A stretch of 64,000 bases of DNA from Thermoplasmatota archaeon (lineage in GTDB: Archaea > Thermoplasmatota > Penumbrarchaeia > Penumbrarchaeales > Penumbrarchaeaceae). Within the stretch, counting starts at the first letter, position 1; each line of letters opens with the position of its first letter. Location: the NCBI GenBank assembly GCA_029762535.1, contig JARVGK010000003.1:32001-96000 (forward strand). The letters run 5' to 3'. A model generated the notes under the pieces. It made no database searches, had not been told where the DNA came from, and worked only from the letters and a program-made list of their open reading frames with translations. The translations under genes were made by a program, and so were the position numbers. This document shows positions 1 to 57,657 of the stretch, piece after piece.

Positions 1-50
1 CCCAAGGGTTCGAATCCAAATGTACAATGCTCCCGAAAATAATTAGAAAG

Positions 51-124
51 CGGACCCATGGGGATTCGAACCCCACCCCCCGGCTCCGAAGGCCGGAAGA
101 CTATCCTGGCTATCCTATGGGCCC
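51..124 (-). tRNA. tRNA-Arg(TCG)
   Basis: Reverse complement folds as a cloverleaf: acceptor GGGCCCA/TGGGTCC, anticodon arm CCGGC-CTTCGGA-GCCGG, T-loop TTCGAAT; CCA not encoded. Confidence 0.93.
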
Positions 125-680
125 GATGATTGGGTTATGGCCCTGTAGGGTCATAACCCTATTTTAATCGATTCATAAGCGGATCCCCAGGATATGTGTT
201 ACTCCCGAAGGGATCGGGGGTGGGGAAAAAAGTCTCTGTGGTTGGATTCTTTCGGGGGAAGAATCCACCGGAAGACTATCCTGGCTATCCTATGGGCCCA
301 TATTGGTTTGTAGTCCGAATGTAATGAGGACTATAAACCTTTATATGGTGATCCTTAGGCTGGATAGGCGGATCAAGCCATATTCGGGGTGGGGGAAAAG
401 CCTCTGTACGGAGGCCGGATCGGGGATCCGGCCTGAAGACTATCCTGGCTATCCTATGGGTCCATGAACTATTGGATGGCCAAAGGCCGGCCAATAGTTC
501 TATTTTTCGGACCCATAGACGATGGGGGATAGGCGGATCTAGCCGAGTTCGGGGTGGGGGAAAGAGTCTGTGTACGGAGGCCGGATCGGGGATCCGGCCT
601 GAAGACTATCCTGGCTATCCTATGGGCCCGATGATTGGGTTATGGCCCGTAGGGATATAACCCAATTTCAATCAATTCAT
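125..680. repeat. tRNA-Arg-derived tandem array upstream of the tRNA (3 diverged units, periods 175/164/166 bp)
   Basis: gaagactatcctggctatcctatggg(c/t)cc (tRNA nt 1-29) recurs at 96, 271, 435 and 601; spacers are hairpin-rich. Confidence 0.9.
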
Positions 681-1003
681 CTACCGCTTATACGGTACCA
701 TGCGGGAAGCCCGATGTACCTGTAATGGTCCTCGATCTGCCTGGAATATATGGAGGCATAGAAGCGGTTGAAATCGGCGACATGAAGCAGTCCCTTCTTC
801 GTGGGAACGACCTTGTAGGACCTCTCGTCCCTATCGACCGATATGTAGCCCTCACCCTCCAGATGCGAGAGCACCCTCTCCGTCATGTTGTGGTTTGACC
901 TTATATGATGCATTATCTCCGATTTGGAAAGCCCGTCGATCCCTCCAGAAAGAAGCTGTTCGATCTTCGATCCGAGATCTTTCTGCTGGAGATCGATGCC
1001 CAT
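677..1003 (-). CDS. Winged helix-turn-helix protein, putative transcriptional regulator
   Basis: LSKSEIMHHIRSNHNMTERVLSHLEGEGYI...YKVVPTKKG wHTH pattern; ATG at 1003 preferred over the GTG at 1081. Confidence 0.65.
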   Translation of the reverse strand: MGIDLQQKDLGSKIEQLLSGGIDGLSKSEIMHHIRSNHNMTERVLSHLEGEGYISVDRDERSYKVVPTKKGLLHVADFNRFYASIYSRQIEDHYRYIGLPAWYRISGR

Positions 1004-1086
1004 CGCTGAGGCTAGAAGGTTCAACACGATGCAGGAATACAGGTTGATGTCCTTGTAGCTCTTTCCTTCCAAACCGCACACACCTC

Positions 1087-1932
1087 TCAGGGCAGCACTT
1101 TCGGGAGCTCTGGGACATACGGTATGAACTCGTATCTCCCGTTCGGAAGTTCCACGACGACCTGAACGTTCATCCGCTTCTCCTTCTTTGCCTTAAGGTA
1201 TATCCTACCCTCGACAAGTTTGTCATACAATTTCTCGTCGATCCCGTTGAACGACCCTCCCGCCTTGTAAAGCAGACATACCCTGCCCGGGTATATCTTC
1301 GATCTCGATGTGATATCCTCCAGGTCACTTATGATGGCCTTGAGGTCCTCTGAACTGGGGGATCTCCTGTACTCTCGTATGAAGATGGAGTATCCCGGAT
1401 ACCCGATCCTGAACAGCTTGGAGAAGAACGATGCCTTGTTGAGGATGAAAGCGCTGAAATGATGCCTCTTTCCCGACTTGCCCACGGCATACGAGTCCTT
1501 CCTGATGATCTCCGGCCTTCTGCTGATCATCCTCTTGAAGGTGAGATTGTTCTTCTTCAGATAGTTGAGGAACCGCTCCGTCATGTTCTTGCCTTTCGGT
1601 ATGGAATGTCCAGGGGGCCCCTCCCTCATGGCCTTGATGGCCGAATACCTGAAAGCGGCCGTCTTGAGAAAACGCCTCAAATGGGTGAGAAGCCGTGCGG
1701 TTATGATCCCGGTCACGAGAAGGGAGAGAAGTATCAGCACGAGGAACCAGTTGCCACTGGATAGCGTTGCAAGGAACAGCAGCAGGTAAAGTACAACTGA
1801 GAACCATACGAAATATAGCGCGAACTTTGATAGGAACAGTATCCTATCCGAGTTGTCGATTATCTCCTCGGCCAGGTTGAACGTCCCTGATATGGGGTCC
1901 TCGACCCCTCTGTATAGCTGCCATCGCTTCAT
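1087..1932 (-). CDS. Membrane protein (2 TM) with C-terminal restriction-endonuclease-like (Mrr/PD-(D/E)XK-like) domain, probably inactive
   Basis: Two hydrophobic helices at about aa 33-82; GKSGKRHHFSAFI resembles the archaeal GKSGxxHxFD motif. Confidence 0.5.
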   Translation of the reverse strand: MKRWQLYRGVEDPISGTFNLAEEIIDNSDRILFLSKFALYFVWFSVVLYLLLFLATLSSGNWFLVLILLSLLVTGIITARLLTHLRRFLKTAAFRYSAIKAMREGPPGHSIPKGKNMTERFLNYLKKNNLTFKRMISRRPEIIRKDSYAVGKSGKRHHFSAFILNKASFFSKLFRIGYPGYSIFIREYRRSPSSEDLKAIISDLEDITSRSKIYPGRVCLLYKAGGSFNGIDEKLYDKLVEGRIYLKAKKEKRMNVQVVVELPNGRYEFIPYVPELPKVLP

Positions 1933-2082
1933 TTCAAATCACCCAAGAGATCCTTTTCTGTGCTCTCTCGGCCCTCATCGTATTTAAACCCGTATGAAAC
2001 AAAGTTACGTAACTTTCTGTTAGAACAAGCTTTCGTTCCCTTATATATGATTTTTCGTGCCTCTTCCCTGTGGTGATAAGAC

Positions 2083-4236
2083 ATGACCAAAGGAAAAGCA
2101 TGGATAATCCTGCCCCTGATCCTCGCCGGCGCGATAATCGCCTCGGGCGTGGGGATGATAGGTCTCCTGCTCCAGCTGACGGAGAGGGATGGGGCAGGGC
2201 CGGATATTGAGCCAGAGCATGCGATCACCAGCAGCGAGCTGCTGCTGGCCAAGGAGATATCCTCGGAAACCTACCGGCGATCGCTGGACACCGCACTCTC
2301 CGCAGAGGGATATTCCCCCAAGGAGAAGGGGATCCCCATACGGCCTGAAAATGAAAAGGTCCCGCTTCCCCCAACAGCTGAGGGTGAGCCCGAACGTACG
2401 AGAGGGGAGGACGATCTTACAAGCATGGAAGGATACATTAACAGGGACGAGGGCCCGGGAGCGCCCGAGATCAACGTGGATTCCACCGCCTCCCTTCTCG
2501 GCGAGAAGGGATCCCTCATAGAGGGCTCCTACTCCACGCTGAAGGAGGGCTCGATCCCGGACGGTTTCTCCGTGATCGATATCGATGAGGACCACGACCT
2601 CCCCGTAACCGAGGAGGGGATCTCCATGGAAGAGGATATGCCCCCTGAGATCTCCAAGGATATGGAGGACCTTTCCGATGAGCTCTCCGATGTTCTTGGA
2701 GAGAACGCACCCGATGCGGCATCGGCGGGAATCGACCTCAACGACGTGGCTGAAACCACCTGGACCATGTCGAACTCGACATCCAGGGATTCGGACCTCG
2801 ACGGCAACCCCGAATACAAGTACGAGATCAAAGTGGCATACGGAAGGAAGAACAACACCGTTCTCAACTCCAGCCTCGAATATATCGCTGGCTACGAATA
2901 TGAATACCGTGACGCGGACTCCGACGGGACACCTAACTACGAGAGGCTCTTCATCGTCAAGTTCGCGAATTACACTGTGAACGGCAACAAGGTTGCCGAG
3001 GGCGTCTCCTTCACCGAGATCGTGAAGAACGATACCGACGGCGACTCGTTGATCGATCGTGAGGACATAAAGCATCTGTCATACGGGTATCACGCCACGT
3101 TGTTCGGCACGGTGAAGAGCTTCGCCAGGGCGGGCGAGATCTCCCGGATCGACGATGACGCTGACTCCGGGTTCGACAGGACCACAGGCAGCGCCGTCTT
3201 CTACATGAAGAACGAGAACGTAAGGACGAATGTCACCTTGAGGGAGTCCTTCATTGTTATCAAGGGATCGCGCTCCGAGGTATATGCCGAGTACTCGAGC
3301 CTCGCTTTCACGAGGCTCAACGGGACCTCGGGTAACGTCCTTCTCGAGGACGCGCGGATAATGACCTACAAAGAGAGCGGCTCGAATAGGAACCTCGTCC
3401 TCATCGCAGGAAGGAACAACACCGTCACCGGACGGGTCCAGTATGGTATCTTGAACCTCACGGCGTCATCTCAGGGAAATACGACGACGATAAGGGTAAC
3501 GGGATTCGCACTGGAGAACTCCACTCTCCTTCTCGGCGGGACCAGGTCCGACGCCGTGGCCGTGGATTACACTGTCGTGATCGAAGGGACCTCAAAGACC
3601 GAATCCGGCTTCCTCGCAGCCTCCAGAACGGATATGAGGCCCAAGACCACGGAGGAGTCGGTGATATTCCTGTCCATGGACAGGAGCTCATCCTCAAACG
3701 TCACCATCAGCGAGAACGTGACGGTATTCGCCAGGGTGAACGTGACAGGGACCGGACTGACCTCGACCTCGGCGCTGGCCATGAGGAACTACGCCGATGC
3801 CGACGCGGACGGCAATGCCGAATATCTGAAGGAGGCATGGGTCGTCGGCAGGTCCGAGGACCTGGACAACGACGGCATCGTTGATAAGGAAGGTTACATA
3901 GTCCACTGGGCCGAGACGATGGACCAGGATGACGACGGCAACCCCGAGCGCATCAACAACTTCACCATGATGGGCTGGAAACACGATACCGACGACGACG
4001 GGAACGTGGACATCGAGAGGGGATTGATGGTCAACGTGACATGGTACGACGAGAACTCCAACGGCACGTTCGAGCTCAAGGAGACAGGCATCCTTGGCTT
4101 CGAGAAGAAGGATGCCGATTCCGACGGTGTTTTCGACAGCGAGAAATACGCCGGCGCCTGGGAGAAGATCATCGACGTCCATGACGATGGCACCGAGATC
4201 AACAAGCAGTCCGGAACCTGGACGCACGAGGTATGA
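2083..4236 (+). CDS. Secreted or N-anchored beta-rich protein with many DxDxDG Ca-binding motifs
   Basis: N-terminal hydrophobic helix, acidic linker, about 11 DxDxDG-like turns, NxS/T sequons. Confidence 0.7.
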   Translation: MTKGKAWIILPLILAGAIIASGVGMIGLLLQLTERDGAGPDIEPEHAITSSELLLAKEISSETYRRSLDTALSAEGYSPKEKGIPIRPENEKVPLPPTAEGEPERTRGEDDLTSMEGYINRDEGPGAPEINVDSTASLLGEKGSLIEGSYSTLKEGSIPDGFSVIDIDEDHDLPVTEEGISMEEDMPPEISKDMEDLSDELSDVLGENAPDAASAGIDLNDVAETTWTMSNSTSRDSDLDGNPEYKYEIKVAYGRKNNTVLNSSLEYIAGYEYEYRDADSDGTPNYERLFIVKFANYTVNGNKVAEGVSFTEIVKNDTDGDSLIDREDIKHLSYGYHATLFGTVKSFARAGEISRIDDDADSGFDRTTGSAVFYMKNENVRTNVTLRESFIVIKGSRSEVYAEYSSLAFTRLNGTSGNVLLEDARIMTYKESGSNRNLVLIAGRNNTVTGRVQYGILNLTASSQGNTTTIRVTGFALENSTLLLGGTRSDAVAVDYTVVIEGTSKTESGFLAASRTDMRPKTTEESVIFLSMDRSSSSNVTISENVTVFARVNVTGTGLTSTSALAMRNYADADADGNAEYLKEAWVVGRSEDLDNDGIVDKEGYIVHWAETMDQDDDGNPERINNFTMMGWKHDTDDDGNVDIERGLMVNVTWYDENSNGTFELKETGILGFEKKDADSDGVFDSEKYAGAWEKIIDVHDDGTEINKQSGTWTHEV

Positions 4237-9761: not shown

Positions 9762-12455
9762 ATGAGATCGCTCTTATTCCTCATAACGCCCCTGCTCATC
9801 GTCCCGATCGTTCTTTTCGTTGATATATCCTGGGCGGATCCGGTCCAGGGGACCGAGTGGGACGCGCCGTTCCCCGACGATCTCAGGTTCTCCGATCCTG
9901 GCCCCATCGATTACGAAAGAATGATCGATGTTCTCTATCTGGATGACGGCACATATTTCTGGTTACACATCGTGACGGAGCAGGTCCCCGGTTACGACCT
10001 GAACAGTGTGATCCTCCTGTTAGAGATGTACTCCGAGGCCGACGAGCTCCTATCGAGCGATCCGATAACGCTTTTCGAGACATCTTTCGATCCATACGAT
10101 CGGATAGTGTATCCGGCGGAGTACGGAGACGACGGGATCGCATTCCTCCTCGAACTGAAACAGAACTATTATGGCAACAGCGGGGCCGATGAATTCTATA
10201 TGGTGGTCCTCGATAACGCGACATCCTCCGGGCCTCTGTCGGCGGAGTCGAAATACCTGGACATAGAGGACTTCGATCATTTCAGGTTCAGGTTCGAGGA
10301 GGAGTCCCTCCCGTATATGGCATACCTTGTCCTCTATGGAGAGGATATGGTCTTCGTCCAGCCCTATTCCTCGGAGGAGGGGTTCTTGGACCCTATCGAG
10401 TTCGAGGAAGGGGTTCGTCAGGCCTCGGACATACTCGACCACGGTGAGGGTATCATATTCATACATCAGGAGGCCCGTGGGACGATCACTTTAAGATCAT
10501 ACTATCCCAACGGGACCAAATTTGGGTCCGTGGATGTGCCGGCATATCCGGAGGGGATCGGTCTGGACAACACCTTCGACTCGTGGATGCACGAAGGGAA
10601 TATCCACCTTATGGTCTGGCGGGACGAATTGCGTGGGTCCTACAAGCACCTGGACCATCTGGTGATCTCCATCGACGGGGAGATAATAGATAAGGATCTG
10701 GACATCCTCCCATGGGAGAGCCCGTTCCTTTTGACCAACCATCTCTTCGGCCTCGAGGGGGACATCTTCCTGCTCGGGACCAACTCGTACTCGCTCTACA
10801 GGTTCGAGAAGGACATGACCCCCATCGTCAGATATCCTATCGGATCCCACCCGGACGATCCCGGCCTCTGGGAGATATTCCTGTTGGATCATTTCAAGGG
10901 AGAGGTCCATCTTCTCATCCGGGGCGAGGATCATTTCGGGATCTCCTCCTACAGGGAGGGCGAATTGCCCATGTTCGGCTCCTTCAGTATCGAAGAGGAT
11001 ACGGTCATGGACAACGAGACCTATCCCCAGGATTGCAGACTGATCGTTGGGAACGGCAGCACCCTGGTCCTCGAGGGGATCGATCTGATGATCGAGTACT
11101 ACGACTTCCCTCTGATCGTAACGGATGGCGGATCACTGGAGATGAAAGGATGCACGAACCGGACGGGCGAGAATTGGAACGTCGATAACGATGGCCGACT
11201 GACCATGGTCGATTGCACCATGAGGATCGATATCACCGGCACGGGTTCGATATTACTTGAAGGGAACGGGAACGTCTTCCCCACCCGATACTATCTGGAC
11301 TGGGAATGTTCCTCGCTGACGTTGACCGGAATTGTCGCCTCCGGATCGGATATTCCCACCCATCAGATCTTCTACAGTATCCAGAGGAACGACTATACCG
11401 TCCCCATGTTGAACATCATCGATTGCGAACTCAGGGATCTCGCATCGAACACGCGCAAAGGATTGGAAATGAGGGCCGACTCGATCCTCGTCAGGGACTG
11501 CACCTTCGAGAACGTCAGCTGCTTCTTCAACGACGGCGACCTGAAGATCGAAGGGTCTACGTTCCAGGATTGCGATCTCTCCGGAGTGGATCCCGCGGAT
11601 ACGGTCCATGTTATCGATTCGACCTTCAGGGATTGCAGGAACGTCTATTGGCTGTTCGGCACGATGCATTCCGAGATCGAAGGGTCGTCCTTCATGAACT
11701 GCTCCCGGATCATCGAGACCTCGTCCTATGCCGATAATCGGATAGAGGTCTCGAAGTGCCGGTTCGTCGAATGCGAGAACGTCACCGAATACGAGGGATC
11801 GGACCTCATAACGATCGAGGATTCCCTGTTCCTGAACTGCCGGAGGACGATCGGCATCGATGCCGATCTGGATGAACACATAGGGCTCAGGATAGCGAAC
11901 TGCACCTTCGACGGTAAACAACGCCAGGTCTATTTCAAGGGCGATCCGCTGGACGATGTCGACCCGTTCGACGATCCCGAGGAACCGTTCGGTTACAACA
12001 CCCCGAGGATGGTTGACCTGGCCTACAATACCTGGAACGCCTCCCATCCGGAGCAGGTGGCCTCCGTCGTTTCCTTCGGTATCAAGTTCCTTCCGTTCAA
12101 TGACCTCGAGGGGAACCTGATATCGACCGAAGATGACGACATGGACCGGATGGACGACGATTGGGAGGAAAAGAACGGCCTTGACCCGGAGCATTATTTC
12201 GACAGGTTCCTCGATCCCGACAACGACGGCTACGACAATCTCGAGGAGTTCAGGGCGGGCTCGGACCCCATGGATGGCGGGGATCATCCCTACGAGATGA
12301 CTCCCGAACTGAAGTTATGGATACTTATATGCGCGTGCAGCGTCCTGGTGGCCGCCGCCCTTTTCATCGCGTTCCCACTGCAGGCATTCGTCAGGGGGAT
12401 CCGGCCTCCCCCTAAAAACCATAAGGATGAGAAGATAAAGGAGGGGGCGCATTGA
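9762..12455 (+). CDS. Surface protein: right-handed beta-helix, DxDxDG Ca-binding module, C-terminal TM
   Basis: Signal peptide; repeated (I/V)xDCTFxN units; DDDWEEKNGLDP...DPDNDGYDNLEEF; TM plus basic tail. Confidence 0.7.
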   Translation: MRSLLFLITPLLIVPIVLFVDISWADPVQGTEWDAPFPDDLRFSDPGPIDYERMIDVLYLDDGTYFWLHIVTEQVPGYDLNSVILLLEMYSEADELLSSDPITLFETSFDPYDRIVYPAEYGDDGIAFLLELKQNYYGNSGADEFYMVVLDNATSSGPLSAESKYLDIEDFDHFRFRFEEESLPYMAYLVLYGEDMVFVQPYSSEEGFLDPIEFEEGVRQASDILDHGEGIIFIHQEARGTITLRSYYPNGTKFGSVDVPAYPEGIGLDNTFDSWMHEGNIHLMVWRDELRGSYKHLDHLVISIDGEIIDKDLDILPWESPFLLTNHLFGLEGDIFLLGTNSYSLYRFEKDMTPIVRYPIGSHPDDPGLWEIFLLDHFKGEVHLLIRGEDHFGISSYREGELPMFGSFSIEEDTVMDNETYPQDCRLIVGNGSTLVLEGIDLMIEYYDFPLIVTDGGSLEMKGCTNRTGENWNVDNDGRLTMVDCTMRIDITGTGSILLEGNGNVFPTRYYLDWECSSLTLTGIVASGSDIPTHQIFYSIQRNDYTVPMLNIIDCELRDLASNTRKGLEMRADSILVRDCTFENVSCFFNDGDLKIEGSTFQDCDLSGVDPADTVHVIDSTFRDCRNVYWLFGTMHSEIEGSSFMNCSRIIETSSYADNRIEVSKCRFVECENVTEYEGSDLITIEDSLFLNCRRTIGIDADLDEHIGLRIANCTFDGKQRQVYFKGDPLDDVDPFDDPEEPFGYNTPRMVDLAYNTWNASHPEQVASVVSFGIKFLPFNDLEGNLISTEDDDMDRMDDDWEEKNGLDPEHYFDRFLDPDNDGYDNLEEFRAGSDPMDGGDHPYEMTPELKLWILICACSVLVAAALFIAFPLQAFVRGIRPPPKNHKDEKIKEGAH

Positions 12456-16991: not shown

Positions 16992-17369
16992 GTCACTGGT
17001 GGGAACCTTCGTAACGTCAACATGCCGACAACTACAACAGTTCCAAAGGGGGGAAAATGCCATCGGGAATTTTTTCGAAGTTGAACCCTGGGTTCAAAGA
17101 CGCCAGTGGCGACAATGAGTAAAAAAATAAACGGGAAGCAACAAATCGCTCGATCATCAGGCTTCCCGGTCCTGGAAAAACCAAGCCGGGGAATTGGTCA
17201 CTGGTAGTTTTTCCCGACTTTTTCATCCTACAACGATCACAATATGCCAAAGGATGAAAAAGAGCCACTGGTGGGAACCCGCAGAAACCTCGAAGAGGGT
17301 TCGAGGGCAGGGGAAATGTCATCAGACATTTTCCCGATGTTGAACCCAAGGTTCAATCACACCAGTGGC
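16992..17369. repeat. Two palindromic tRNA-Thr 3'-end elements (16992-17110 and 17262-17369) separated by stacked hairpins
   Basis: cactggtgggaa-[two hairpins]-ttgaacc..ggttcaa..ccagtggc-gacaa(t/a)gagtaaa occurs twice. Confidence 0.85.
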
Positions 17370-17389: not shown

Positions 17390-17464
17390 TGGAGCCACTG
17401 GTGGGAATTGAACCCACGACCTACTCCTTACCAAGGAGTCGCTATACCGCTAAGCCACAGTGGC
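17390..17464 (-). tRNA. tRNA-Thr(GGT)
   Basis: GCCACTG/CAGTGGC acceptor, ACTCC-TTGGTAA-GGAGT anticodon arm, TTCAATT T-loop, encoded CCA. Confidence 0.95.
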
Positions 17465-17520: not shown

Positions 17521-17720
17521 GAGCCACTGGTGGGAACCTTTGGAACGTCAACATGCCGACAACTACAACAGTTCCAAAGGCGGGGAAAATGCCCTCAGGC
17601 ATTTTTCCAACGTTGAACCCACGACCTACTCCTTACCAAGGCCCTGGGAAAACCTTGGGTTTTCCCGGTCATGACCCCTTTCGGGCTCATGAAGTCGCTA
17701 TATCGCTAAGCCACAGTGGC
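17521..17720 (-). pseudogene. Full-length tRNA-Thr(GGT) copy interrupted by 76-nt and 51-nt double-hairpin insertions
   Basis: Removing 17537-17612 and 17642-17692 restores the tRNA except for a D-loop G>A and the lost CCA; 31 bp of upstream flank is also duplicated. Confidence 0.85.
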
Positions 17721-17778: not shown

Positions 17779-17849
17779 GTCACTGGTGGGAACCTTTGGA
17801 ACTTCAACATGCCGACAACTACAACAGTTCCAAAGGCGGGGAAAAAGCC
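17779..17849. repeat. Truncated tRNA-Thr 3'-end element with the same hairpin insert
   Basis: cactggtgggaacctttggaac...gttccaaaggcggggaaaa is near-identical to 17525-17589. Confidence 0.85.
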
Positions 17850-37200: not shown

Positions 37201-37862
37201 CGAGCCTGCCTGAAGGATCGATGTTCGCATCTCCTATAGTGGTTTCCTTGAGCAATTCCAAAGGATATCCCATCAACGTTTGGATAGGATACAGGATCAA
37301 GGATACGACACTCGCCCCGACCGAGCTTGTGAACGAGACCCTCGCGGCCCTTGAATCGAACCGTCAGGTCACTCTCGATCTTTCCGAGGTGCCCGTTGGC
37401 GTTTACGAGATCAGGGTCATCGTAAGGGACGCCACGGAGGGTTCCGTCCTCAATGAATACCCATTGTACCTCACTATAGAGGAGAGGACCCCGGACACGA
37501 CCAGATCATGGATCATCATAGTCGTGGTGGTCCTTCTCCTGATCGTCATAATAGGCGTTGGGGCCTTCCTCTATCTTCAGTCCCGAAAGGGAAAGGAGGA
37601 AATGGCCGTCCGCGAGGAGTTCGAATGTCCAGAGTGCCACAACACCGTTGGCGCGGATGATACGGTGTGCCCCAACTGCGGTGCCGAGTTCGAGGAGGAG
37701 GCCTACAAGTGCCCGAAGTGCGGCAACATGCTGGACCCCGAGGACGATGAGTGCTCCGAATGTGGTTACGATTTCGCCGATGAGGACAAGATGGAGATCG
37801 ACGAGGACGATTATGAGATCGATGAGGGCGAGGTCGAAGAGCTCATCGACATGGAGGAGTGA
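34278..37862 (+). CDS. Large surface protein: Big_5/SbsA Ig-like and carboxypeptidase-regulatory-like domains, TM, cytoplasmic double Zn ribbon, acidic tail
   Basis: PADG/LEYDTxY repeats, TM, CPEC..CPNC..CPKC..CSEC. Confidence 0.8.
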   Translation: MNIKIVSAAMVLLMIATSGIVLFGAQEAEGVPPTRAIPRTFTGFIDNYTLANRGDFVANITAETVDPSVQPPLQIGPFFGMFNETHPALEFRISVDIQSVPAGSPWTIRINDRYGWNETGGGSISVTPYPEFYWQNGSAKTVYVLENGSSDQPAYLPGVFGNLSFTILNGSSGEPLEGVAFDFDKHKGHSTSTSGNYTDLSGNVTFRNMQLGIDQDNNVKVTFIKEHFNTVDQTGYSFFELREGVDTHHFFTLIEDPLVRSVAPADGTMNVRTEKDIVNIFVRFTDLINVSTINQNTIWLENGSGAKVPVSYTFNNDTLPSTWAYLQPIEDLEYDTDHKLVVDTGVKTTVGTSSLWRRYESSFRTWKAPGILRGTVLVEGTSNPAPEGTRIWLDGVLPRDLVDGEFVFDPVSEGVHTLKTVGPTVGGIDEYLYTGMETDPITVVRGDDIDVQDLTVTKRPTVSVIITVTDRSGIPLEGATVTHVITDAQSISDPNGRAVLSDIRASYTQQFWVRAENYQDSIVPLDVGDSDPAQFTVALSESPLPLTITARNGVEVTLDEGAVVAVNSYFVLTFEDLMNPDTMTTANIKVFDSTNDPLSLRIVNDTNNMKRWYITPVSNMMWGSDYRLWISSLVADSLGDNPLWRDVEIAFKTHPLNPASVSGRVAINDKGLEGFDVVLKNGEDTLGSAVTGPNGAFFLYIPMSVETLTGVDALVNGSEYGLLEGRRTGLTLNADEALDDVVINMVRRPNWFRVTYQVDDTGRMLRNGNITISFDRELDHTSEGFQNNFTLGSMRISVTPSADGTGVVIIPEEPLEYDTEYALTISVFSDVDYHKELRFADGKPALIRGDTVTLRTELRPLTVTLQSPSGDLLNAVAKDERFVVRFSTAVVSEVVEEEISMVRFVDDRPVGNIAFEWRDDFRALDITHENFMPETRYVIRLGSGSYGQNGAKLMEDFEVFFRSDSWTDPALRPLPSLPEGSMFASPIVVSLSNSKGYPINVWIGYRIKDTTLAPTELVNETLAALESNRQVTLDLSEVPVGVYEIRVIVRDATEGSVLNEYPLYLTIEERTPDTTRSWIIIVVVVLLLIVIIGVGAFLYLQSRKGKEEMAVREEFECPECHNTVGADDTVCPNCGAEFEEEAYKCPKCGNMLDPEDDECSECGYDFADEDKMEIDEDDYEIDEGEVEELIDMEE

Positions 37863-37932
37863 TCCCGCCCTAATCGAGCCAAGGACCCGAATGTGAAGTA
37901 TATCGGATACACGTATTAAGAGGTGGTTCAGG

Positions 37933-40900
37933 ATGCAGTCGAAGAACATCGTTACGATGTTACTGGTGATCTTGTTGATAGCCATGGCACAGCCCGCGAC
38001 CGGTGATCGGTCGGAGGGCGATCCAACGCGCGGAACGCTGGACGCCTATGTCGCCGGGACGGTCCTCAATGCAACGGGGGGCCATCCCGTCAGCGTCTCC
38101 TCAAGGGAGCTGAGCAGCAACATGTTCATATACTTCAACGGAACGACCGATAACCTGGGAAGGTTCAATATCACCGTGGACTCGGACCCGGTGGACCTCT
38201 TGCCCTACACCGTGTCGATCGCTGAGGTCTATTTTCAGGTCCCATCATTGGGGACGTACAACTTCGACACCACGATCGGATCGGGCCAGACGCAGCATGT
38301 GCCAGAGGGTATGCTTGAGCTTGTGGATGCCGCCCTGGGGGACCTGAAGATCACCATACTCAACGGTTCCTCGATGCGGCCGCTGCCGCACCCCCTTCTC
38401 AACATAAGGGCGGATTCGGTCCCGGATCCTCCATTCCCGACCGCTAAGATGGGTGACGCACAGGGTACGGCCGTTTACCTGGGGATCAGGGCGGTCACGA
38501 CGAAGGTGATTGCAAGCAAATCGAACTTCCTCACCTTGGAGGATTCCACTTCCGACGATATCGTTGAAGTGCTTCCCGGGGTTCAGACCGATGTGACCTT
38601 CGTGCTCGATGAGAGGCCATGGCCTTTCACAACGGACCCTGCGGACGGTTCCGAGGACGTTAACCATACCCAGCGCATGACCGTTTACTACGGACAGGAG
38701 ATGGACCCTCTGACCATCGCCGACGCTTCCAACTTCATGGTCTACCCTGCCGAAGGAGGGGATGCCCTCGAGCTGCAGGTGGAATCCGCGGGAGGCAACA
38801 CCCAGACCAGGATCACAACGATCGCTCCCATGGAATACAACACCTCATGCATTCTACGGATAGACAACACCGTGAGGACCAAGCTGGGTGCGAAGCCTCT
38901 CTGGAGGGCGATGGAGGTCAGTTTCACAACGGAGCTCGCGCCGGCCGTGGTCAGCGGGAGGTTAGTGGACTCATCGAGCGGATCCCCTGTCCCTGGGGTA
39001 TCACTTCGGTTGAAGGATATGCGGGCCAGATCGAATGGGTCCGGCCATTTCATCTTCCCTCTGGTCGTTCCTGAAGTTTACACCCTTGAGGTGGAACCAA
39101 GCTACCTGTTCCTCGGGACAAGCATCACTTCACTAGATATAGTGAAAGGGGAGATCAGGGACCTCGGGGATGTGGAGATCGATCCAAGGCCGAACGGGTC
39201 CCTCGAGGTCCAGGTCCTATCAGGCCCCTTCCCGCTGCCGGGAGCCTGGGTCCATATCGAAGGGTCCGATCTCAACCTGACGACCTCTGACGACGGCATA
39301 GCCTACTTCGAGAGGACCAGAACGGGACTTGTGACCTTGATGGTCGGGGCGGAGCATCATGCGATGGTCGTCGAACAGGCCACCGTGTCGGAAGGGCTAC
39401 GCTCACATCTATCAGTGGCCCTGGTCGAGGATCAAATGCTCGTAAGCGTCGTACCGACCTTGCCCCTCGGCGGTGGCATCGTTGAACCGGGGACGAAGTT
39501 CGTCCTGATAATGCCTGAACCTATAGATTTCTCCACCCTTTCCGTTTCCCTGTGGGAGACCGACAATGAACTGAACAGGGTTCTTCAGATGCCCACACTC
39601 CCGGTCAGCGCAGGGGAGGCTATCAATACATACATGGTGTCCCCCACCTCCGCCCTCCCGATGGAGAGGAGCTATGTCCTCCTGATCGATATGGGTCTTG
39701 CGTCCTCCGGTTCGGGGGATCCTCTTCTGTGGAGGGACCTATCATATTATTTCAGCACGCCTGATTACCCTCTATCCTACGTTTCCGGTAAAATACTGCT
39801 CGACGACAGCCCCTTTGCAGGGCTCGAGGTGAACTTCGGAACCTTCGTTTCTCAGACCGGGGACGACGGGGAATTCAACATCACGGTCGACCTCTCCGGT
39901 CCCACGCTGGATGGGATACTATCCTTCAACGGCTCCGCATGGGGATACGAGAGCCTGAGCCAGTCCATCAGTATTACCCCTGGGGTCGTCGTTGATGCCG
40001 GGACGATCCATCTGGCGATGCTGCCCGGAAGATGCACGATCGATCCGGAGGATGGGTCTAATAATGTAGAACCGGACATTGCCGTATCCTTCACCTTCTC
40101 CGAACCTGTCATCGTACCGGAGGAGGGACTCTCTGCAAGGCTCTTTCTGTCCAGGAATGGATCTACTACCCCCATTCCGGGGTCATATGAGGCTTCGAAC
40201 GGGAACAGGACCATAACGTTCTCCCCAACGTTCCAATTGGAAGAAAGTATGGTTTACGTCGCGACCGTACGGAACGCGCTCATGCTTGGGACGGGATACC
40301 CGGCCTGTCCTGTGGGACACACCTCCCGTTTCACTGTCAGGATGCCGATGGTGCGCATCTCGCTCCTGTCCCCGGATACGTCCATCCTCGAAGAATTGCC
40401 CCTCGACGAACCCATTGTCCTGTCCTTCTCGATGCCGGTGAACCGGACAATGGTAGAGTCATCGTTGGTGATCGATCCGGACCCGCTACTGTTACGATAC
40501 CTATGGAGGACATCCACGGAACTGGAGATCGTCCTCTTCATGACCCCTCTGTCGGAATACACCCTTACCCTGCCCAGATCTGACTTGGGTATGGATGGTC
40601 AGATGGGCATGGAGGAACTTTCGATACAGTTCACGGCGGGAAGATCCTATGCTCGCAGCCACGAGGAGAGGTCCTTCTCGATACTCCCGGACACCATACC
40701 GGAGGTCAAGCCGGGTCAGGAGATTCGCTTGAACGGCCTGATCGACGGCTCTAAGGGATATGATGTCGTCGTGAAGCTGACCGGGAACGGAATGGAACAG
40801 GAACACGTCGCACAGGTGGGAGAGGACGGGTCCTGGGACATAGCCTTCAAGGCTCCGAATGCGTCAGGCACCTACACGATCTCTCTGACCATAGGGGTGC

Positions 40901-41133
40901 CAGGGGCACCATCATGTATAGAACCCAGGTCCTATACTATAGAGGTCGGATCAGAGAAGGAGGTGGATGAGCCCTACGACATCCAGGGTTTGATGGTACC
41001 GGTCCTGGTCGGTTTATTCATACTGATCATCGTTCTTGTGGCGATCGCCGTGTTCTTTGTTCAAAGGAAGAGAGCCAGAGAGACCCTCGAGAACATAGAT
41101 TACGACTCCGTCGATATCGACATGGAGGAATGA
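37933..41133 (+). CDS. Paralogous Ig-like (Big_5) surface protein with C-terminal TM
   Basis: PADGSEDV, PLWRxxxxxFxT repeats, terminal TM, ends DIDMEE. Confidence 0.8.
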   Translation: MQSKNIVTMLLVILLIAMAQPATGDRSEGDPTRGTLDAYVAGTVLNATGGHPVSVSSRELSSNMFIYFNGTTDNLGRFNITVDSDPVDLLPYTVSIAEVYFQVPSLGTYNFDTTIGSGQTQHVPEGMLELVDAALGDLKITILNGSSMRPLPHPLLNIRADSVPDPPFPTAKMGDAQGTAVYLGIRAVTTKVIASKSNFLTLEDSTSDDIVEVLPGVQTDVTFVLDERPWPFTTDPADGSEDVNHTQRMTVYYGQEMDPLTIADASNFMVYPAEGGDALELQVESAGGNTQTRITTIAPMEYNTSCILRIDNTVRTKLGAKPLWRAMEVSFTTELAPAVVSGRLVDSSSGSPVPGVSLRLKDMRARSNGSGHFIFPLVVPEVYTLEVEPSYLFLGTSITSLDIVKGEIRDLGDVEIDPRPNGSLEVQVLSGPFPLPGAWVHIEGSDLNLTTSDDGIAYFERTRTGLVTLMVGAEHHAMVVEQATVSEGLRSHLSVALVEDQMLVSVVPTLPLGGGIVEPGTKFVLIMPEPIDFSTLSVSLWETDNELNRVLQMPTLPVSAGEAINTYMVSPTSALPMERSYVLLIDMGLASSGSGDPLLWRDLSYYFSTPDYPLSYVSGKILLDDSPFAGLEVNFGTFVSQTGDDGEFNITVDLSGPTLDGILSFNGSAWGYESLSQSISITPGVVVDAGTIHLAMLPGRCTIDPEDGSNNVEPDIAVSFTFSEPVIVPEEGLSARLFLSRNGSTTPIPGSYEASNGNRTITFSPTFQLEESMVYVATVRNALMLGTGYPACPVGHTSRFTVRMPMVRISLLSPDTSILEELPLDEPIVLSFSMPVNRTMVESSLVIDPDPLLLRYLWRTSTELEIVLFMTPLSEYTLTLPRSDLGMDGQMGMEELSIQFTAGRSYARSHEERSFSILPDTIPEVKPGQEIRLNGLIDGSKGYDVVVKLTGNGMEQEHVAQVGEDGSWDIAFKAPNASGTYTISLTIGVPGAPSCIEPRSYTIEVGSEKEVDEPYDIQGLMVPVLVGLFILIIVLVAIAVFFVQRKRARETLENIDYDSVDIDMEE

Positions 41134-53526: not shown

Positions 53527-53557
53527 ACCATAGACCGGCCGGGACCTGTTATATCCG

Positions 53558-56175: not shown

Positions 56176-56179
56176 CAGC

Positions 56180-57082
56180 CTACCCCCTGCGCAGGGCTTT
56201 CCCCACCTCTTTCAGGATGCGGTCCCTGGCATCCTCTATGACATAATGTCCAGCATCCTGATATGTCACGAATCGGGCCTTCGGGAATCGAGCCCTCCAG
56301 ACGTCTAATATATCCATATCGAATATGAAATCCTTTTCACCCCAAATAACGAGCATCGGCTTCCCCTTTAGCTTTGACAGGTTCTCGTCGATCCACTTGA
56401 GCGTGCCGTAGCTTGGGTCCTTTGGTACGAGGGGTATGTCCTGAACGAACCTGAGCGTGGATAGGCGGTTCCTCCACGAGTTGTACGGGGCGACGTAACC
56501 CTTCCTTACATGGGGGTCCATCCTCTTTTCAACGCCGATATGGGACGCTATTCTGGAAAAAGCGTTGAGACCCCTGATGAGAAGGGTCGGTGAGATCAGG
56601 CCGTACTTCACGTAATAGAGAGACAGGGGCAATCTCTTGCCCTCCGGCATCCTGAAGGCCGCGGTGTTCATGAACACGAACCTCGAGAACCGCTCCGGAT
56701 GTCCGACCGCGACCCCTGCTCCGATCACACCCCCCCAATCATGGGCTATCAGAGTGATATCCTCATCGATGCCCAGGTGATCGAGGAGCGCTTCCACATC
56801 CTGGATCCTGGATGCGATCCTGTATTGGTATTTGTCCTCTCCTGGTCGGTCCGACAGCCCCATTCCCATATGATCGGGCACGATGCATCGGTGGTCCGCC
56901 CTGAGGTCCTTGACCAGCTCCCGGAAATAAAAAGACCAGGTCGGGTTGCCGTGAAGAAAAAGAACGGGAGGTCCCCTGCCCTCGTCGAGATAATGATGCC
57001 TCAGACCGTTCCTCTCGAACCAGTGATGTTCGAACGGGTAAATGTCCCTGAAAGGGGTAATATCGAAAGGTGTTCCATGCAT
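56180..57082 (-). CDS. oleB: OleB-like beta-lactone decarboxylase (haloalkane dehalogenase fold)
   Basis: HGNPTWSF, HDWGG, FVQDIP, WGEKDFIF, AGHYVIED; precedes oleC. Confidence 0.85.
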   Translation of the reverse strand: MHGTPFDITPFRDIYPFEHHWFERNGLRHHYLDEGRGPPVLFLHGNPTWSFYFRELVKDLRADHRCIVPDHMGMGLSDRPGEDKYQYRIASRIQDVEALLDHLGIDEDITLIAHDWGGVIGAGVAVGHPERFSRFVFMNTAAFRMPEGKRLPLSLYYVKYGLISPTLLIRGLNAFSRIASHIGVEKRMDPHVRKGYVAPYNSWRNRLSTLRFVQDIPLVPKDPSYGTLKWIDENLSKLKGKPMLVIWGEKDFIFDMDILDVWRARFPKARFVTYQDAGHYVIEDARDRILKEVGKALRRG

Positions 57083-57248
57083 TGTATCCGGGGACCAAGG
57101 TCCATATCCTAAATTAAGATTGCTTCGGGGATGATCCGCTTAGATCGATCTATTATCATCCATCATCATTCATGAACCCCGGGATGTTTAATTATGGTCG
57201 AGTGGGGTTCGAATCCCGTGCGTCGCTAGAGCTACAACAAATTAGATA

Positions 57249-57335
57249 TGGTGCAGGGGAAGGGATTCGAACCCTCGAACCACTAAGGACCAGACCCTGA
57301 ATCTGGCGCCGTTGGCCAGGCTTGGCTACCCCTGC
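57249..57335 (-). tRNA. tRNA-Leu(CAG)
   Basis: GCAGGGG/CCCCTGC acceptor, CCAGA-TTCAGGG-TCTGG anticodon arm, long variable arm, encoded CCA. Confidence 0.95.
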
Positions 57336-57657
57336 ATGTTTTTGCGTTTGTGCCTGGGTAGCGTATGGCCAACGGCGCCCCGAGACGCAGTCTCGGTGAT
57401 GGCGCCTCGGATGGGTGGCATGTGCCACCCGTCCCCTTCCGCGAACGCTTTGGTGGTGAGACCAAAGGGTTCTTGGGCAGGCTTGGCTACCCCTGCATGT
57501 TTTTGCGTTTGTGCCTGGGTAGCGTATGGCCAACGGCGCCCCGAGACGCAGTCTCGGTGATGGCGCCTCGGATGGGTGGCATGTGCCACCCGTCCCCTTC
57601 CGCGAACGCTTTGGTGGTGAGACCAAAGGGTTCTTGGCCAGGCTTGGCTACCCCTGC
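57336..57657. repeat. Two near-identical 161-bp tRNA-Leu-derived tandem units
   Basis: 57336-57496 and 57497-57657 differ at one position by eye; each ends in tRNA nt 1-24 (ttgg(c/g)caggcttggctacccctgc). Confidence 0.92.

Follow-up and report, generated by a model that had tools for sequence, protein, structure and literature searches.

tRNA genes of the window and their arrays

The window, meaning the whole stretch of 64,000 nucleotides that was analysed and that comes from an uncultured Thermoplasmatota archaeon, carries three tRNA genes (Arg, Thr and Leu), all on the minus strand according to ARAGORN and Rfam, and all three have arrays of hairpin-rich units that contain parts of the resident tRNA. 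In the following list, z values compare the folding of a unit with that of its shuffles.

1-25, minus: start of Arg downstream unit A, with left arm GGATTCGAACC and the beginning of hairpin a (model R1, cut at the window edge)
26-49, minus: T-rich trailer of tRNA-Arg
50-124, minus: tRNA-Arg(TCG), intact, no encoded CCA (ARAGORN; Rfam tRNA, 50 bits)
125-299, minus: Arg upstream unit U1, 175 nt, opening with tRNA positions 1-32 (268-299)
300-463, minus: Arg upstream unit U2, 164 nt, opening with tRNA positions 1-34 (430-463)
464-629, minus: Arg upstream unit U3, 166 nt, opening with tRNA positions 1-34 (596-629); z -5.65
630-680, minus: second copy of the hairpin spacer that precedes the intact tRNA-Arg (cf. 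125-178)
16994-17110, minus: Thr downstream unit D2, D1-like design, decayed, ending with tRNA positions 58-69; z -0.67
17264-17369, minus: Thr downstream unit D1, ending with tRNA positions 58-73; z -6.07
17390-17464, minus: tRNA-Thr(GGT), intact, CCA encoded (ARAGORN; Rfam, 71.6 bits)
17521-17720, minus: second complete but interrupted tRNA-Thr(GGT) copy with two hairpin inserts
17781-17849, minus: further Thr upstream fragment, a hairpin module followed by tRNA-Thr positions 58-69
~57150-57225, minus: partial downstream unit A of tRNA-Leu, long hairpin a and then decay
57249-57335, minus: tRNA-Leu(CAG), intact, CCA encoded (ARAGORN; Rfam permissive scan, 47.7 bits)
57336-57496, minus: Leu upstream unit U1, 161 nt; z -6.73
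57497-57657, minus: Leu upstream unit U2, 161 nt, 99% identical to U1

Arg downstream unit A continues to the left of the window, where it is joined by a second unit (G000:C36:31766-32025); there R1, a covariance model of one unit type, gives full matches at C36:31908-32025 and 31766-31883. Upstream, U1 contains a perfect hairpin with a CCCCCGA loop, a T6 run and a C-rich motif; it also has an inverted 5' copy, degenerate in sequence, and just before the tRNA a hairpin spacer. In U2 the hairpin GGCCGGATC-CCC-GATCCGGCC, which recurs beside tRNA-Pro(GGG) and tRNA-Arg(CCG), is followed by CCGTACAGAG, the C-rich motif and a promoter-like AAAGGTTTATAG hairpin; U3 has the same hairpin and C-rich motif, and its remnant of the 3' acceptor strand, CTATGGGTCCG, pairs with the 5' copy in a 10-bp closing stem. 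The C-rich motif (CCCCACCCCGA) recurs at tRNA-Pro and at other tRNAs for Arg and is therefore not derived from tRNA-Arg; of the inverted tRNA copies that a preliminary description had reported here, this stretch is a motif of the module, whereas a degenerate inverted copy of the D arm and 5' part does exist.

The interrupted tRNA-Thr copy, preceded by a copy of the tRNA-Thr upstream spacer, consists of tRNA positions 1-28 (17693-17720), 29-57 (17613-17641) and 58-73 (17521-17536), separated by two inserts with two hairpins each, of 51 nt after position 28 (17642-17692) and of 76 nt within the T loop (17537-17612). Model R1 matches 17521-17631 on the plus strand, so that the module is inverted relative to tRNA-Thr. 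Downstream, a 10-bp closing stem (GCCACTGGTG/CACCAGTGGC), a mimic of acceptor plus T stem, surrounds the three hairpins of D1.

At the Leu locus, U1 is composed of tRNA positions 1-24 (57473-57496, one change), three hairpins and a 17-nt spacer, with a 27-nt inverted copy of tRNA positions 4-31 at 57353-57379; in U2, positions 1-24 are at 57634-57657 and the inverted copy at 57514-57540. Downstream unit A includes an inverted T arm, GGGATTCGAACCCC, at 57205-57217, and the first 44 nt behind tRNA-Leu(CAG) are identical to those behind tRNA-Leu(TAA) on another contig. For the identical Leu units the copy number comes from a short-read assembly, and the depth of the collapsed unitig (23.6 versus ~14) fits two copies; scaffold gaps of ~100 N are found inside several other arrays of the source genome. 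tRNA promoters are located near -40, and TATA-like boxes at the single-copy tRNA-Leu(CAG) are absent from U1 and U2 and occur only upstream of U2 (~57690-57715), so both upstream units should belong to the 5' leader of this tRNA. In the metagenome of another study the Leu unit differs at 8 of 185 positions and the neighbouring hydrolase gene by ~9%, mostly at third codon positions. The single layout earlier ascribed to the three loci holds as a common principle (tRNA-end copy, hairpins, inverted copy), but the layouts are not identical.

Unit architecture and folding

Downstream units are built, in order, of a spacer, the reverse complement of the tRNA 3' part, two or three hairpins that are near-perfect, and this 3' part once more as a direct copy. 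The inverted copies correspond to tRNA positions 52-64 and are located at +100 to +130, and the direct copies after them to positions 55/56-75 or 60/61-75; upstream units open with the first 24-34 positions, and direct copies on that side run from position 1 to positions 24-44. The predicted fold of a downstream unit is a closing helix with two or three hairpins, in which the 3' strand of the helix repeats the segment from T loop to 3' end of the resident tRNA and the 5' strand is complementary to it; upstream units are a mirror image of this design, made with the 24-34 nt at the tRNA's 5' end. Units measure 95-230 bp, have no gene inside and fold far better than their shuffles, with z values of -6.7 (Leu), -5.7 (Arg) and -6.1 (Thr D1) against only -0.7 in the decayed Thr unit D2. 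An acceptor helix serving as a "processing handle" is not universal, since Arg-type units leave the acceptor part of their 3' copy unpaired.

One module architecture with conserved loop motifs is found behind unrelated tRNAs, and an identical 21-nt hairpin plus flank adjoins tRNA-Pro and two Arg tRNAs. The blocks can alternate as A-B-A-B, and distal copies restart a unit and then decay, a behaviour typical of tandem repeats. Within the source genome, paralogous arrays resemble each other more closely than orthologous arrays of different genera do. Stems are for the most part perfect, and hairpins have their whole sequence replaced from one genus to another, so renewal at the DNA level fits as well as selection on RNA. 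Hairpin c occurs also in non-tRNA repeats, and a P-type ATPase gene is located between tRNA-Met-type units.

Distribution in the genome and conservation in the order

Hairpin-rich tandem modules, each starting or ending with the resident tRNA's end, flank most tRNA genes in all relatives of the order that were searched and in the source genome, where about 25-30 of 46 have them; these 46 genes form a near-complete canonical set, and every array has its intact tRNA. Genome-wide, an exact 14-mer is common to a tRNA and its own flank for 24 of the 46 tRNAs and for none of 214 mismatched tRNA/flank pairs, which excludes chance as the source of the tRNA copies. The earlier claims that the arrays track the resident tRNA, and are not one dispersed MITE family since their sequence follows that tRNA, are borne out; the proposal that a process acting on tRNA genes in general builds or keeps them agrees with the number of affected tRNAs, with the arrays at orthologous tRNAs of relatives and with the unit model in 18 of 18 genomes. 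The flanks of the SRP RNA, two 5S and the RNase P RNA genes lack arrays, no Rfam family matching the units was found, and neither ARAGORN nor Rfam calls them as tRNA. A search also confirmed that the window is without integrase, reverse transcriptase (RT) or cas gene; in the search for a co-occurring enzyme no RT and no solo Cas1 were found, Y1 transposase was absent from all 20 genomes of the order, and the tyrosine-recombinase matches in the source genome were two, a 271-aa Xer-like protein and one fragment.

Model R1 matches all 18 genomes of the order (16/16 in the family, 2/2 in its sister family); each relative has 2-18 matches and the source genome (G000) 21, and copy number varies between relatives. 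In all 24 cases where a match has a tRNA nearby, it follows this tRNA at a distance of 15-54 nt and on the same strand. In 47 units, aligned by fitting to the model and with cells that count sequences and not events, 93.4% of the cells are paired versus 77.4% in shuffles, and double changes occur at 21 of 27 pairs (200 cells versus 50); slid controls are 25-66% paired. Hairpin c of unit A shows a strand asymmetry (G:T 35, A:C 0) that could instead reflect a conserved T5 run; the G:T to A:C ratio is 8:3 in the closing helix and 22:31 in all array hairpins of the source genome together. The orientation of hairpin c is reversed in B-type units and at Thr loci (8 sense, 13 antisense), and its fixed G:T asymmetry in both orientations makes one transcript strand insufficient as an explanation. 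In the spacer between tRNA and unit, T runs do not exceed four in 19 of 23 relatives, which corresponds to weak stops, and T5-T6 runs are present in about half of the source-genome trailers; the latter should stop archaeal RNA polymerase.

Comparison with known systems

The tRNA-linked repeats (TLRs) of E. coli were reportedly described by Egan and Landy in 1978 and by Rudd in 1999. A TLR module closes with the final 18-19 nt of the tRNA or rRNA that precedes it, and the group includes the tyrT 178-bp repeats and RtT, besides rrA/rrB/rrF behind 5S rRNA; read-through transcription and processing are documented for the three tested, all of them located after 5S rRNA genes, and TLR function is largely unknown (Stenum et al. 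2021, PMC8144298). The statement that no described system has such a layout was thus too strong, since modules terminated by a tRNA end are the hallmark of both. In both, modules are placed directly behind the tRNA gene on the tRNA strand, often in tandem, and copy the last nucleotides of the gene (15-22 here, 18-19 in E. coli). In contrast to TLRs, the archaeal modules are closed by a complementary arm, have mirror-image arrays of tRNA 5' ends upstream, are common to unrelated tRNAs, affect over half of the tRNAs while sparing 5S rRNA, and follow a design found throughout an order; there is no sequence or Rfam relationship, RtT being unmatched even at E <= 1.

Elements with tyrosine integrases leave attL/attR duplications in tRNA genes, also in archaea (PMC9897764). 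The arrays share with them the direct repeat from T loop or anticodon arm to the gene end, the fixed orientation and the possibility of tandem accretion, but the units are gene-less, 95-230 bp long and without an integrase nearby, each has an inverted copy of the att-like segment and a conserved hairpin architecture with compensatory changes, and ~25 tRNAs bear arrays in a genome with only two recombinase matches. Bacterial REP/BIME/REPIN elements are mobilised by RAYT (Y1 HUH) transposases; they are likewise short imperfect palindromes with fixed G:T asymmetry, in mosaics of alternating orientation and also between ordinary genes, whereas Y1 transposase is missing from the 20 genomes of the order and the array units, devoid of REP sequence similarity, are anchored and tailored to tRNA ends. 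Disrupted archaeal tRNAs comprise the split tRNAs of Nanoarchaeum and the multi-intron tRNAs and "mobile" introns of Thermoproteales, reportedly treated by Randau and Soll in 2008, Fujishima et al. in 2010 and Sugahara et al. in 2012. What recalls them is a tRNA copy whose anticodon stem and T loop contain inserts that form hairpins, along with related inserts in different tRNAs, but here every affected tRNA has an intact gene, and a full tRNA set does not require the fragments, which are surplus copies. In the archaeon Methanopyrus kandleri, too, a conserved palindrome directly follows many tRNA genes; it is found ~10 bp behind half of them and was proposed as a 3'-maturation signal, but unlike the arrays it consists of one short palindrome (CGTTA-N9-TAACG) and has no tRNA-end copies (PMC5217627).

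Origin and possible role of the arrays

The main rival explanation, rather unlikely in our judgement, considers the units selfish DNA, namely miniature elements without genes that insert or integrate (or their attP-like scars) and have the T loop and anticodon stem of tRNA genes as targets. They would carry or regenerate the displaced tRNA end, pile up by repeated site-specific recombination and depend for mobility on a tyrosine recombinase supplied in trans, either by the host or by viruses or plasmids passing through. Their breakpoints are the known crossover places of tyrosine integrases (T loop to 3' end, anticodon arm), for which Williams is said to have given a sublocation rule within tRNA genes in 2002, and in the interrupted tRNA-Thr copy two modules are cleanly inserted into a tRNA that is otherwise complete. 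The occurrence of both module orientations, the shared 21-nt hairpin, the likeness of paralogous arrays, the copy-number differences between relatives, the ATPase gene between Met-type units and hairpin c in non-tRNA repeats also favour such elements, and site-specific recombination is compatible with the strict orientation behind tRNAs. This explanation is weakened by the failure to find RT, solo Cas1 or Y1 transposase, by the two recombinase matches only, by the lack of unit-like context among viral contigs and by the fixation of units behind many tRNAs in 18/18 genomes with compensatory changes; moreover, a fixed element end would not be tailored to each tRNA as the inverted arm is, and a 110-190-bp circle is an unlikely recombination substrate. 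Very improbable is a role as decoy or buffer att sites, in which extra tRNA-end copies in both orientations would divert integrases or serve as repair templates and thus protect single-copy tRNA genes: the copies coincide exactly with the segments that usually serve as att sites, one cargo gene is found between Met-type units and not inside a tRNA, and the integrase fragment adjoins tRNA-Arg(TCT)/tRNA-Trp, both without arrays of this kind, but a single candidate insertion was seen, normal integration restores the tRNA so that little protection is needed, and conserved hairpins, strand rule and promoter copies are left unexplained. The tRNA-primed or SINE-like copying suggested in the preliminary description, like an assembly artefact, is largely refuted and the least probable of all; fragment lengths do resemble tRNA-derived fragments, and a short-read assembler could in principle miscount identical Leu units, but RT was not found, most units are diverged copies beyond an assembler's invention, and arrays are present in ~20 independent genomes and in another study's contigs. 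Retro-copying is rejected because copies and complements include trailer nucleotides and follow the CCA status of the gene, not the mature tRNA.

Neutral debris, with neither function nor dedicated mobility, is a quite unlikely explanation. In it, tRNA genes, being highly transcribed and prone to hairpins, would be tandemly duplicated through unequal crossing-over and through repair by fold-back or template switching, and the duplicates would decay into fragments whose ends are kept alike by gene conversion with the live tRNA. Correction of quasipalindromes by template switching yields perfect palindromes; the decaying distal copies behave as tandem repeats, the interrupted tRNA-Thr copy resembles an intermediate, and scaffold gaps and contig ends at arrays indicate instability or repetitiveness. 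Debris, however, would not account for one module architecture with conserved loop motifs at unrelated tRNAs in 18/18 genomes, for compensatory changes far above controls, for a strand rule obeyed 24 times in 24 or for a Leu unit better conserved than the neutral sites of the neighbouring gene. It is highly improbable that the units are working disrupted tRNA genes (split, permuted or multi-intron) spliced at bulge-helix-bulge motifs: the two inserts of the tRNA-Thr copy, one between positions 28 and 29 and the other within the T loop, occupy places comparable to those of non-canonical introns in Thermoproteales, and the ends of the T-loop insert can pair as a 4-bp TTGG/CCAA helix, but inspection by eye revealed no regular bulge-helix-bulge at the insert junctions, the middle of the tRNA is missing in most units, ARAGORN and Rfam do not call them, and the 46-gene set already supplies an intact tRNA for every array.

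We tentatively prefer to regard the arrays as structured modules on pre-tRNA transcripts, similar to E. coli TLRs and reshuffled by recombination between tRNA-end repeats. This reading draws on the tailoring to each tRNA, the regular copy rules, the order-wide conservation, the strand and distance rule, the compensatory changes, the asymmetry of hairpin c, the weak stops, the promoter position and unit conservation at the Leu locus, the tandem-repeat behaviour and the precedent of TLRs; counted against it are a search of RNA runs that found the locus in none of them, hairpin c in both orientations, the overall 22:31 ratio, the unpaired acceptor part of Arg-type units, the T5-T6 trailers, the perfect stems with wholesale hairpin replacement and the model-fitted covariation alignment. 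What the analysis shows is the anatomy, the specificity for tRNAs, the strand and distance rule, the conservation across the order, the compensatory changes and the lack of RT and Y1 transposase; transcription, processing and any function of released RNAs are what we infer. Modules would be physically part of tRNA transcription units, the upstream ones co-transcribed as 5' leader and the downstream ones by read-through of weak oligo-T stops; the tRNA-end copies would give every module the tRNA's end sequence and helix, and these shared ends could let RNase P, RNase Z and exonucleases release or trim the modules. At the DNA level, repeated tRNA ends and the universal T-loop sequence may drive unequal crossing-over and gene conversion, a recombination that would expand, shrink and exchange modules between tRNA loci and keep the end copies identical to the resident tRNA. 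Compared with the TLRs of E. coli, the arrays thus appear to be their archaeal counterpart in a more elaborate form.

Architecture of the Arrays in the Window

Three tRNA genes of the window (G000:C36:32001-96000) are flanked by arrays of tandem, hairpin-rich units, each bearing a copy of the resident tRNA's own end:

50-124, minus strand, tRNA-Arg(TCG)
17390-17464, minus strand, tRNA-Thr(GGT)
57249-57335, minus strand, tRNA-Leu(CAG)

In the sense of the tRNA, three units of 164-175 nt lie ahead of the tRNA-Arg gene, each opening with tRNA positions 1-32/34, and two 161-nt units, 99% identical, lie ahead of the tRNA-Leu gene, each of which carries positions 1-24 at its start and a 27-nt inverted copy of positions 4-31. 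Upstream of tRNA-Thr lies a second whole copy of the tRNA, interrupted twice, by 51 nt after position 28 and by 76 nt within the T loop, and surrounded by three more units whose ends correspond to tRNA positions 58-73. The unit coordinates were verified letter by letter, and the layout given for these loci in the preliminary description was borne out by flank reading and by a repeat finder. The units fold more stably than shuffled sequence (z of -5.7 to -6.7), one decayed unit giving -0.7. The covariance model of the downstream unit type (unit A) has matches within the window that adjoin tRNAs only, and at the Thr locus it matches the antisense strand. The window also encodes very large predicted surface proteins. 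Two of them, of 1194 and 1066 aa at 34278-41133, plus strand, have Big_5 and CarboxypepD_reg domains, and zinc ribbons close the first of the two; a third, of 897 aa at 9762-12455, plus strand, has beta-helix/LRR_5. Several long ORFs are without a Pfam match (2083-4236, 60124-62421).

A downstream unit starts with an AT/T-rich spacer followed by a left arm, the reverse complement of the 3' part of the local tRNA. This arm always includes the T-loop/T-stem and often extends over the acceptor strand as well; in Arg-type units the acceptor part has no pairing partner. The unit contains the short hairpin a (GAACCC-TTGG-GGGTTC), the long and perfect hairpin b (9-13 bp, a 20-24-nt loop and variable sequence), and hairpin c (GGAAAAT..ATTTT(T)C); the right arm is a direct copy of the tRNA end, and the two arms close a four-way junction. 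Upstream units of the Arg/Pro type hold the first ~30 nt of the tRNA and then a perfect hairpin whose loop reads CCC(C)GA, as well as CCGTACAGAG, a T-run and a C-rich motif, and they include a copy of the promoter-like hairpin AAAGGTTTATAG. In class II units a closing helix, made of the tRNA 5' part and its complement, encloses three hairpins. Strong hairpins number 138 in the arrays versus about 47 in random genome stretches, a threefold excess.

The left arms are complementary to two or three nucleotides of the trailer and not to CCA, and the direct copies keep the CCA status of their own gene, which indicates that the template is the gene or its primary transcript and not the mature tRNA. 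In the tRNA-Ala arrays the left arms have A3:U70 where the tRNA has G3:U70. A PBS-like inverted arm, complementary to the mature tRNA 3' end with CCA, was ruled out because the arms pair with trailer nucleotides.

Genome-Wide Extent and Specificity

The source genome (G000; 2.96 Mb in 102 contigs) contains 46 canonical tRNA genes. When each was searched against its own +/-2.5 kb, about 25 had strong direct self-copies and 30 had a match of any kind; an exact 14-mer common to tRNA and own flank was found for 24 of the 46, against 0 of 214 control flanks, in which a tRNA was paired with the flanks of tRNAs for another amino acid. Together with the arrays at tRNAs of relatives, these counts support the earlier inference that a process acting on tRNA genes in general lies behind the arrays.

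The layout follows a rule. Downstream, positions ~52-64 are copied in inverted orientation at +100..130, ahead of a direct copy of positions 55/56-75 at about +190..250, with more copies of positions 60/61-75 further on at a spacing of 95-190 nt. Upstream, direct copies of positions 1-24, 1-28/30, 1-34 or 1-44 recur with a period of 161-229 nt, and at class II tRNAs they are separated by an inverted copy of positions 12-31.

No such arrays were found at the SRP RNA gene, the two 5S rRNA genes or the RNase P RNA gene of G000. The "orphan" arrays on contigs C7, C29 and C102 adjoin no other RNA gene; the one at C7:38450-39026 carries a 3' end common to tRNA-Pro(CGG) and tRNA-Val(CAC) and abuts a scaffold gap. 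ARAGORN found no canonical genes for tRNA-Asp, Lys(CTT), Leu(TAG) and Pro(TGG) in G000 (completeness 93%), and these may lie in gaps or at contig ends.

Distribution and Structural Conservation

The covariance model, built from 13 units, gave 21-30 matches in G000 and 2-18 in each of the relatives searched within the order (18/18), where it matched the other family members in 16/16 genomes and the sister family in 2/2. There were none in seven genomes from other families of the class and six weak matches elsewhere in 150 genomes of the phylum. The pattern GGATTYRAACC-N3-7-GGTTC, searched in 401 genomes, was too narrow and partly matched ordinary tRNAs, and the covariance model was used instead. 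Among the matches fetched from relatives, 24 of 28 adjoin a tRNA, and all 24 lie on the tRNA strand, 15-54 nt past the tRNA 3' end; they involve at least nine amino-acid families of tRNA, and the 3'-end copy tracks the local tRNA.

In 47 aligned units, standard pairs occupy 93.4% of pair cells versus 77.4% in shuffles, and changes on both sides occur in 21 of 27 pairs (200 cells versus 50), figures that come from an alignment fitted to the unit model and from cells that are not independent events; sliding the partner columns lowers pairing to 25-66%. Non-Watson-Crick cells of hairpin c comprise 35 G:T and 0 A:C, and those of the closing helix 8 and 3, respectively. Over all array hairpins of G000 the ratio is 22:31, with no strand signal, in a test diluted by chance hairpins (~47/138). 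RNAalifold on the raw MAFFT alignment recovered the structure in part only.

Exchange between Loci and Turnover

The arrays of unrelated tRNAs are colinear homologues whose arms are nonetheless those of the resident tRNA. The Gly(CCC) and Leu(TAA) arrays are 74% identical over 310 nt, and the Pro(GGG) and Arg(CCG) upstream arrays 88% over 78 nt, including an identical 21-nt hairpin. The units behave as tandem repeats, with A-B-A-B blocks in which unit A alternates with a second unit type, and the last copy is often trailed by a restarted, decaying unit. At orthologous tRNA-Leu(CAG) genes of other genera the architecture is kept, with quite different hairpin sequences and other unit numbers; arrays of one genome therefore resemble each other more than orthologous arrays do, which means that exchange or homogenisation is ongoing. 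In a synteny search that used the hydrolase neighbouring the locus, no tRNA was found beside this gene in relatives.

Reliability of the Assembly

Assemblers do not create diverged copies of the kind that makes up most of the units, and the same design recurs in ~20 independent genomes; an assembly artefact is thus unlikely for most of them. In Logan contigs of the probable source run, the identical Leu units are collapsed into one 160-nt unitig with a depth of 23.6 versus ~14 for the flanks, in line with two copies. The Leu unit and a flanking 24-mer are also present in a metagenome of another study, with 8/185 differences, together with a neighbouring hydrolase gene that is ~9% different, mostly at third codon positions; this suggests that the unit is under constraint, in a comparison biased towards pieces at least 90% alike.

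The arrays disrupt short-read assembly at tRNA genes, as indicated by ~100-N scaffold gaps inside them and, in relatives, by many tRNAs within a few hundred bases of contig ends, so that array copy numbers are lower bounds. When intron length was left free, ARAGORN also reported "tRNAs" with 460-1450-nt introns in G000, in which the program probably joined 5' and 3' tRNA fragments that belong to arrays, or else chance pieces; tRNA finders are thus probably misled by the arrays into false "giant-intron" tRNAs.

Scaffold gaps (~100 N) inside tRNA arrays and giant-intron ARAGORN calls in G000 (contig:positions)
C5:47337-47435, scaffold gap
C21:19536-19634, scaffold gap
C23:22796-22894, scaffold gap
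C33:25851-25950, scaffold gap
C47:81633-81732, scaffold gap
C47:82217-82313, scaffold gap
C69:78603-78702, scaffold gap
C4:5815-6998, giant-intron call
C8:6704-8233, giant-intron call
C12:51840-52414, giant-intron call
C24:33542-34091, giant-intron call
C26:28609-29208, giant-intron call
C33:6438-7394, giant-intron call
C48:5083-6291, giant-intron call

Comparison with Known Systems

tRNA-linked repeats (TLRs) have been known in E. coli since 1978 and are a 45-year-old puzzle; to our knowledge they have no accepted function or origin. In E. coli, 22 modules at ten loci each finish with the final 18-19 nt of the tRNA or 5S gene that precedes them, three of them, behind 5S rRNA genes, are transcribed by read-through and processed, and their function is mostly unknown (PMC8144298). 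The archaeal modules likewise lie directly downstream of the tRNA on the same strand (24/24, 15-54 nt), and end copies of 15-22 nt with 100% identity occur behind ~24 tRNAs. The arrays differ from the E. coli TLRs in being present at both tRNA ends, in affecting more than half of the tRNA genes and in having a complementary arm that closes the modules. They match neither the sequence nor the structure of RtT (RF00391), the member of the group modelled in Rfam; in fact, Rfam detected only tRNA at gathering score and nothing else at E <= 1 on eight array loci, which argues against homology with RtT. By analogy, the arrays are a new archaeal variant of tRNA-linked repeats, and a much richer one. 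Full-text literature searches turned up no account of arrays like these in archaea, a short palindrome behind M. kandleri tRNA genes being a distant precedent (PMC5217627).

Hairpin c, an imperfect palindrome of fixed asymmetry present in the arrays in 8 sense and 13 antisense copies and also at non-tRNA sites, resembles REP/BIME elements with their mosaics of alternating orientation. Mobilization by a RAYT was rejected, as no Y1/IS200 transposase (PF01797) was found in G000 or in any of 20 genomes of the two unit-bearing families; the domain is present in other families of the class. Three hairpin-rich repeat clusters outside the window and away from any known RNA gene (C31:5150-5700, C6:78450-78800, C25:48350-48750) combine the GGAAAAT..ATTTTTC hairpin with GGGGCCCC-type repeats, which points to a broader REP/BIME-like hairpin population in G000.

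The preliminary description had reported no integrase, reverse transcriptase or cas gene in the window, and the genes of these kinds matched in G000 are indeed all on other contigs. Of the co-occurring enzymes that it proposed to look for, G000 has no reverse transcriptase (0 PF00078 matches) and no Y1 transposase. PF00589 has two matches, a 271-aa Xer-like gene on C25 and a tyrosine-integrase fragment at the end of C53 (C53:7237-8098, 45.7 bits), just behind tRNA-Arg(TCT) and an intron-containing tRNA-Trp (intron of ~125 nt); the locus may be an ordinary element integrated at a tRNA. Casposons are recognized by a solo Cas1 and by 14-15-bp target duplications around an element with terminal inverted repeats. 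Casposon/Cas1 integration, with a target duplication of 15-20 bp, was rejected, since the sole Cas1 of G000 is CRISPR-associated, in a 555-aa ORF of a normal CRISPR-Cas locus (C5:60700-67000) with 53 repeats of 36-37 nt. TRF consensus units of the CRISPR array resemble hairpin c, but the 51 real spacers match no module; one has an 18-nt partial match inside the window (C36:55950-55967), and there is otherwise none in the genome outside C5. A viral origin was also discarded, as the hairpin c pattern occurs in 21 viral contigs and a unit-like context in none of them.

Interpretation of the Arrays

Two mutually compatible readings stand. In the first, tentatively held and somewhat short of an even chance, the modules are putative parts of tRNA transcription units. 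This is suggested by the strict strand-and-distance rule, by the compensatory changes and the G:T asymmetry, and by the weak T-runs between tRNA and unit in relatives (T4 or less in 19/23); T5-T6 runs in some trailers and the unpaired acceptor part of Arg-type units count against it. Promoter geometry points the same way: tRNA promoters lie near -40, and at the single-copy tRNA-Leu(CAG) the two upstream units, which are GC-rich, have no TATA-like box, such boxes lying only past the outer unit, so that 322 nt of modules should form the predicted 5' leader of this tRNA. The read-through and processing of E. coli TLRs offer a precedent (PMC8144298). Through the copies of the tRNA ends, and the acceptor-like closing helix where present, the borders of a module would be set by the tRNA end-processing machinery. 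Array turnover would be driven by recombination that involves the repeated ends and the universal T-loop sequence, and the copies would thereby be kept matched to the resident tRNA.

The second reading, that the units are gene-less DNA insertion elements, is a serious contender though rather unlikely. Several features point to DNA-level mobility: the breakpoints fall in the T loop and the anticodon stem, two inserts interrupt the tRNA-Thr copy cleanly, hairpin c occurs in both orientations and the unit model has an antisense match at the Thr locus, unrelated loci have identical hairpins, non-tRNA repeats also contain hairpin c, and a P-type ATPase gene lies between tRNA-Met-type units. The reading is opposed by the lack of a plausible enzyme, the fixation of the units across the order and an inverted arm tailored to each tRNA. 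The ATPase gene (P-type, E1-E2, 702 aa, positions 1688-3796 of locus L088; G000:C29:950-3860, outside the window), together with a 90-aa ORF, is flanked by the tRNA-Met downstream array on one side and by two Met-type units (L088:950-1300) on the other, and looks like a gene cassette bracketed by units bearing tRNA ends. That region is the exception-like case for att duplication by an integrated element, which was otherwise rejected because the units, of 95-230 bp, are gene-less and come with no integrase; for the same reasons the arrays are not known attachment-site remnants. Decoy att sites are very improbable, and neutral duplication debris is improbable. Working split or multi-intron tRNAs are scarcely plausible, an intact gene being present for each affected tRNA and no regular bulge-helix-bulge being seen by eye at the Thr inserts. 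The tRNA-primed or SINE-like copying put forward in the preliminary description was rejected, as no reverse transcriptase is present and the copies hold trailer nucleotides and follow the CCA status of the gene; the signature of retro-copying, CCA where the gene has none, appears only at tRNA-Ala(CGC) and is inconsistent elsewhere. Retro-copies or artefact thus have the slightest chance of all.

A joint reading, speculative and distinctly unlikely as a whole, extends the transcription-unit reading to order-wide, tRNA-specific structured RNAs that would be made as pre-tRNA extensions, tagged, cut out and act on tRNA biology. The tag, the 5' or 3' end of the own tRNA with its complement, would direct excision by the tRNA maturation machinery, and the freed tRNA-end mimics might, for example, titrate end-processing, CCA-adding or tRNA-targeting enzymes, or alternatively pair with tRNA halves.

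Significance

The archaeal arrays display the hallmark of tRNA-linked repeats with far greater regularity and extent than in E. coli. They are conserved across an entire order, with compensatory base changes, and they supply many independent, comparable cases for the role of the modules and for the upkeep of their match to the tRNA. If the modules are DNA elements, they would represent a new kind of gene-less, tRNA-targeting insertion that requires no obvious transposase; if they are RNAs, they would constitute a large undescribed family tied to tRNA maturation. Should the joint reading be true, the arrays would be a regulatory or defensive layer on individual tRNA genes and would provide the first functional handle on tRNA-linked repeats.
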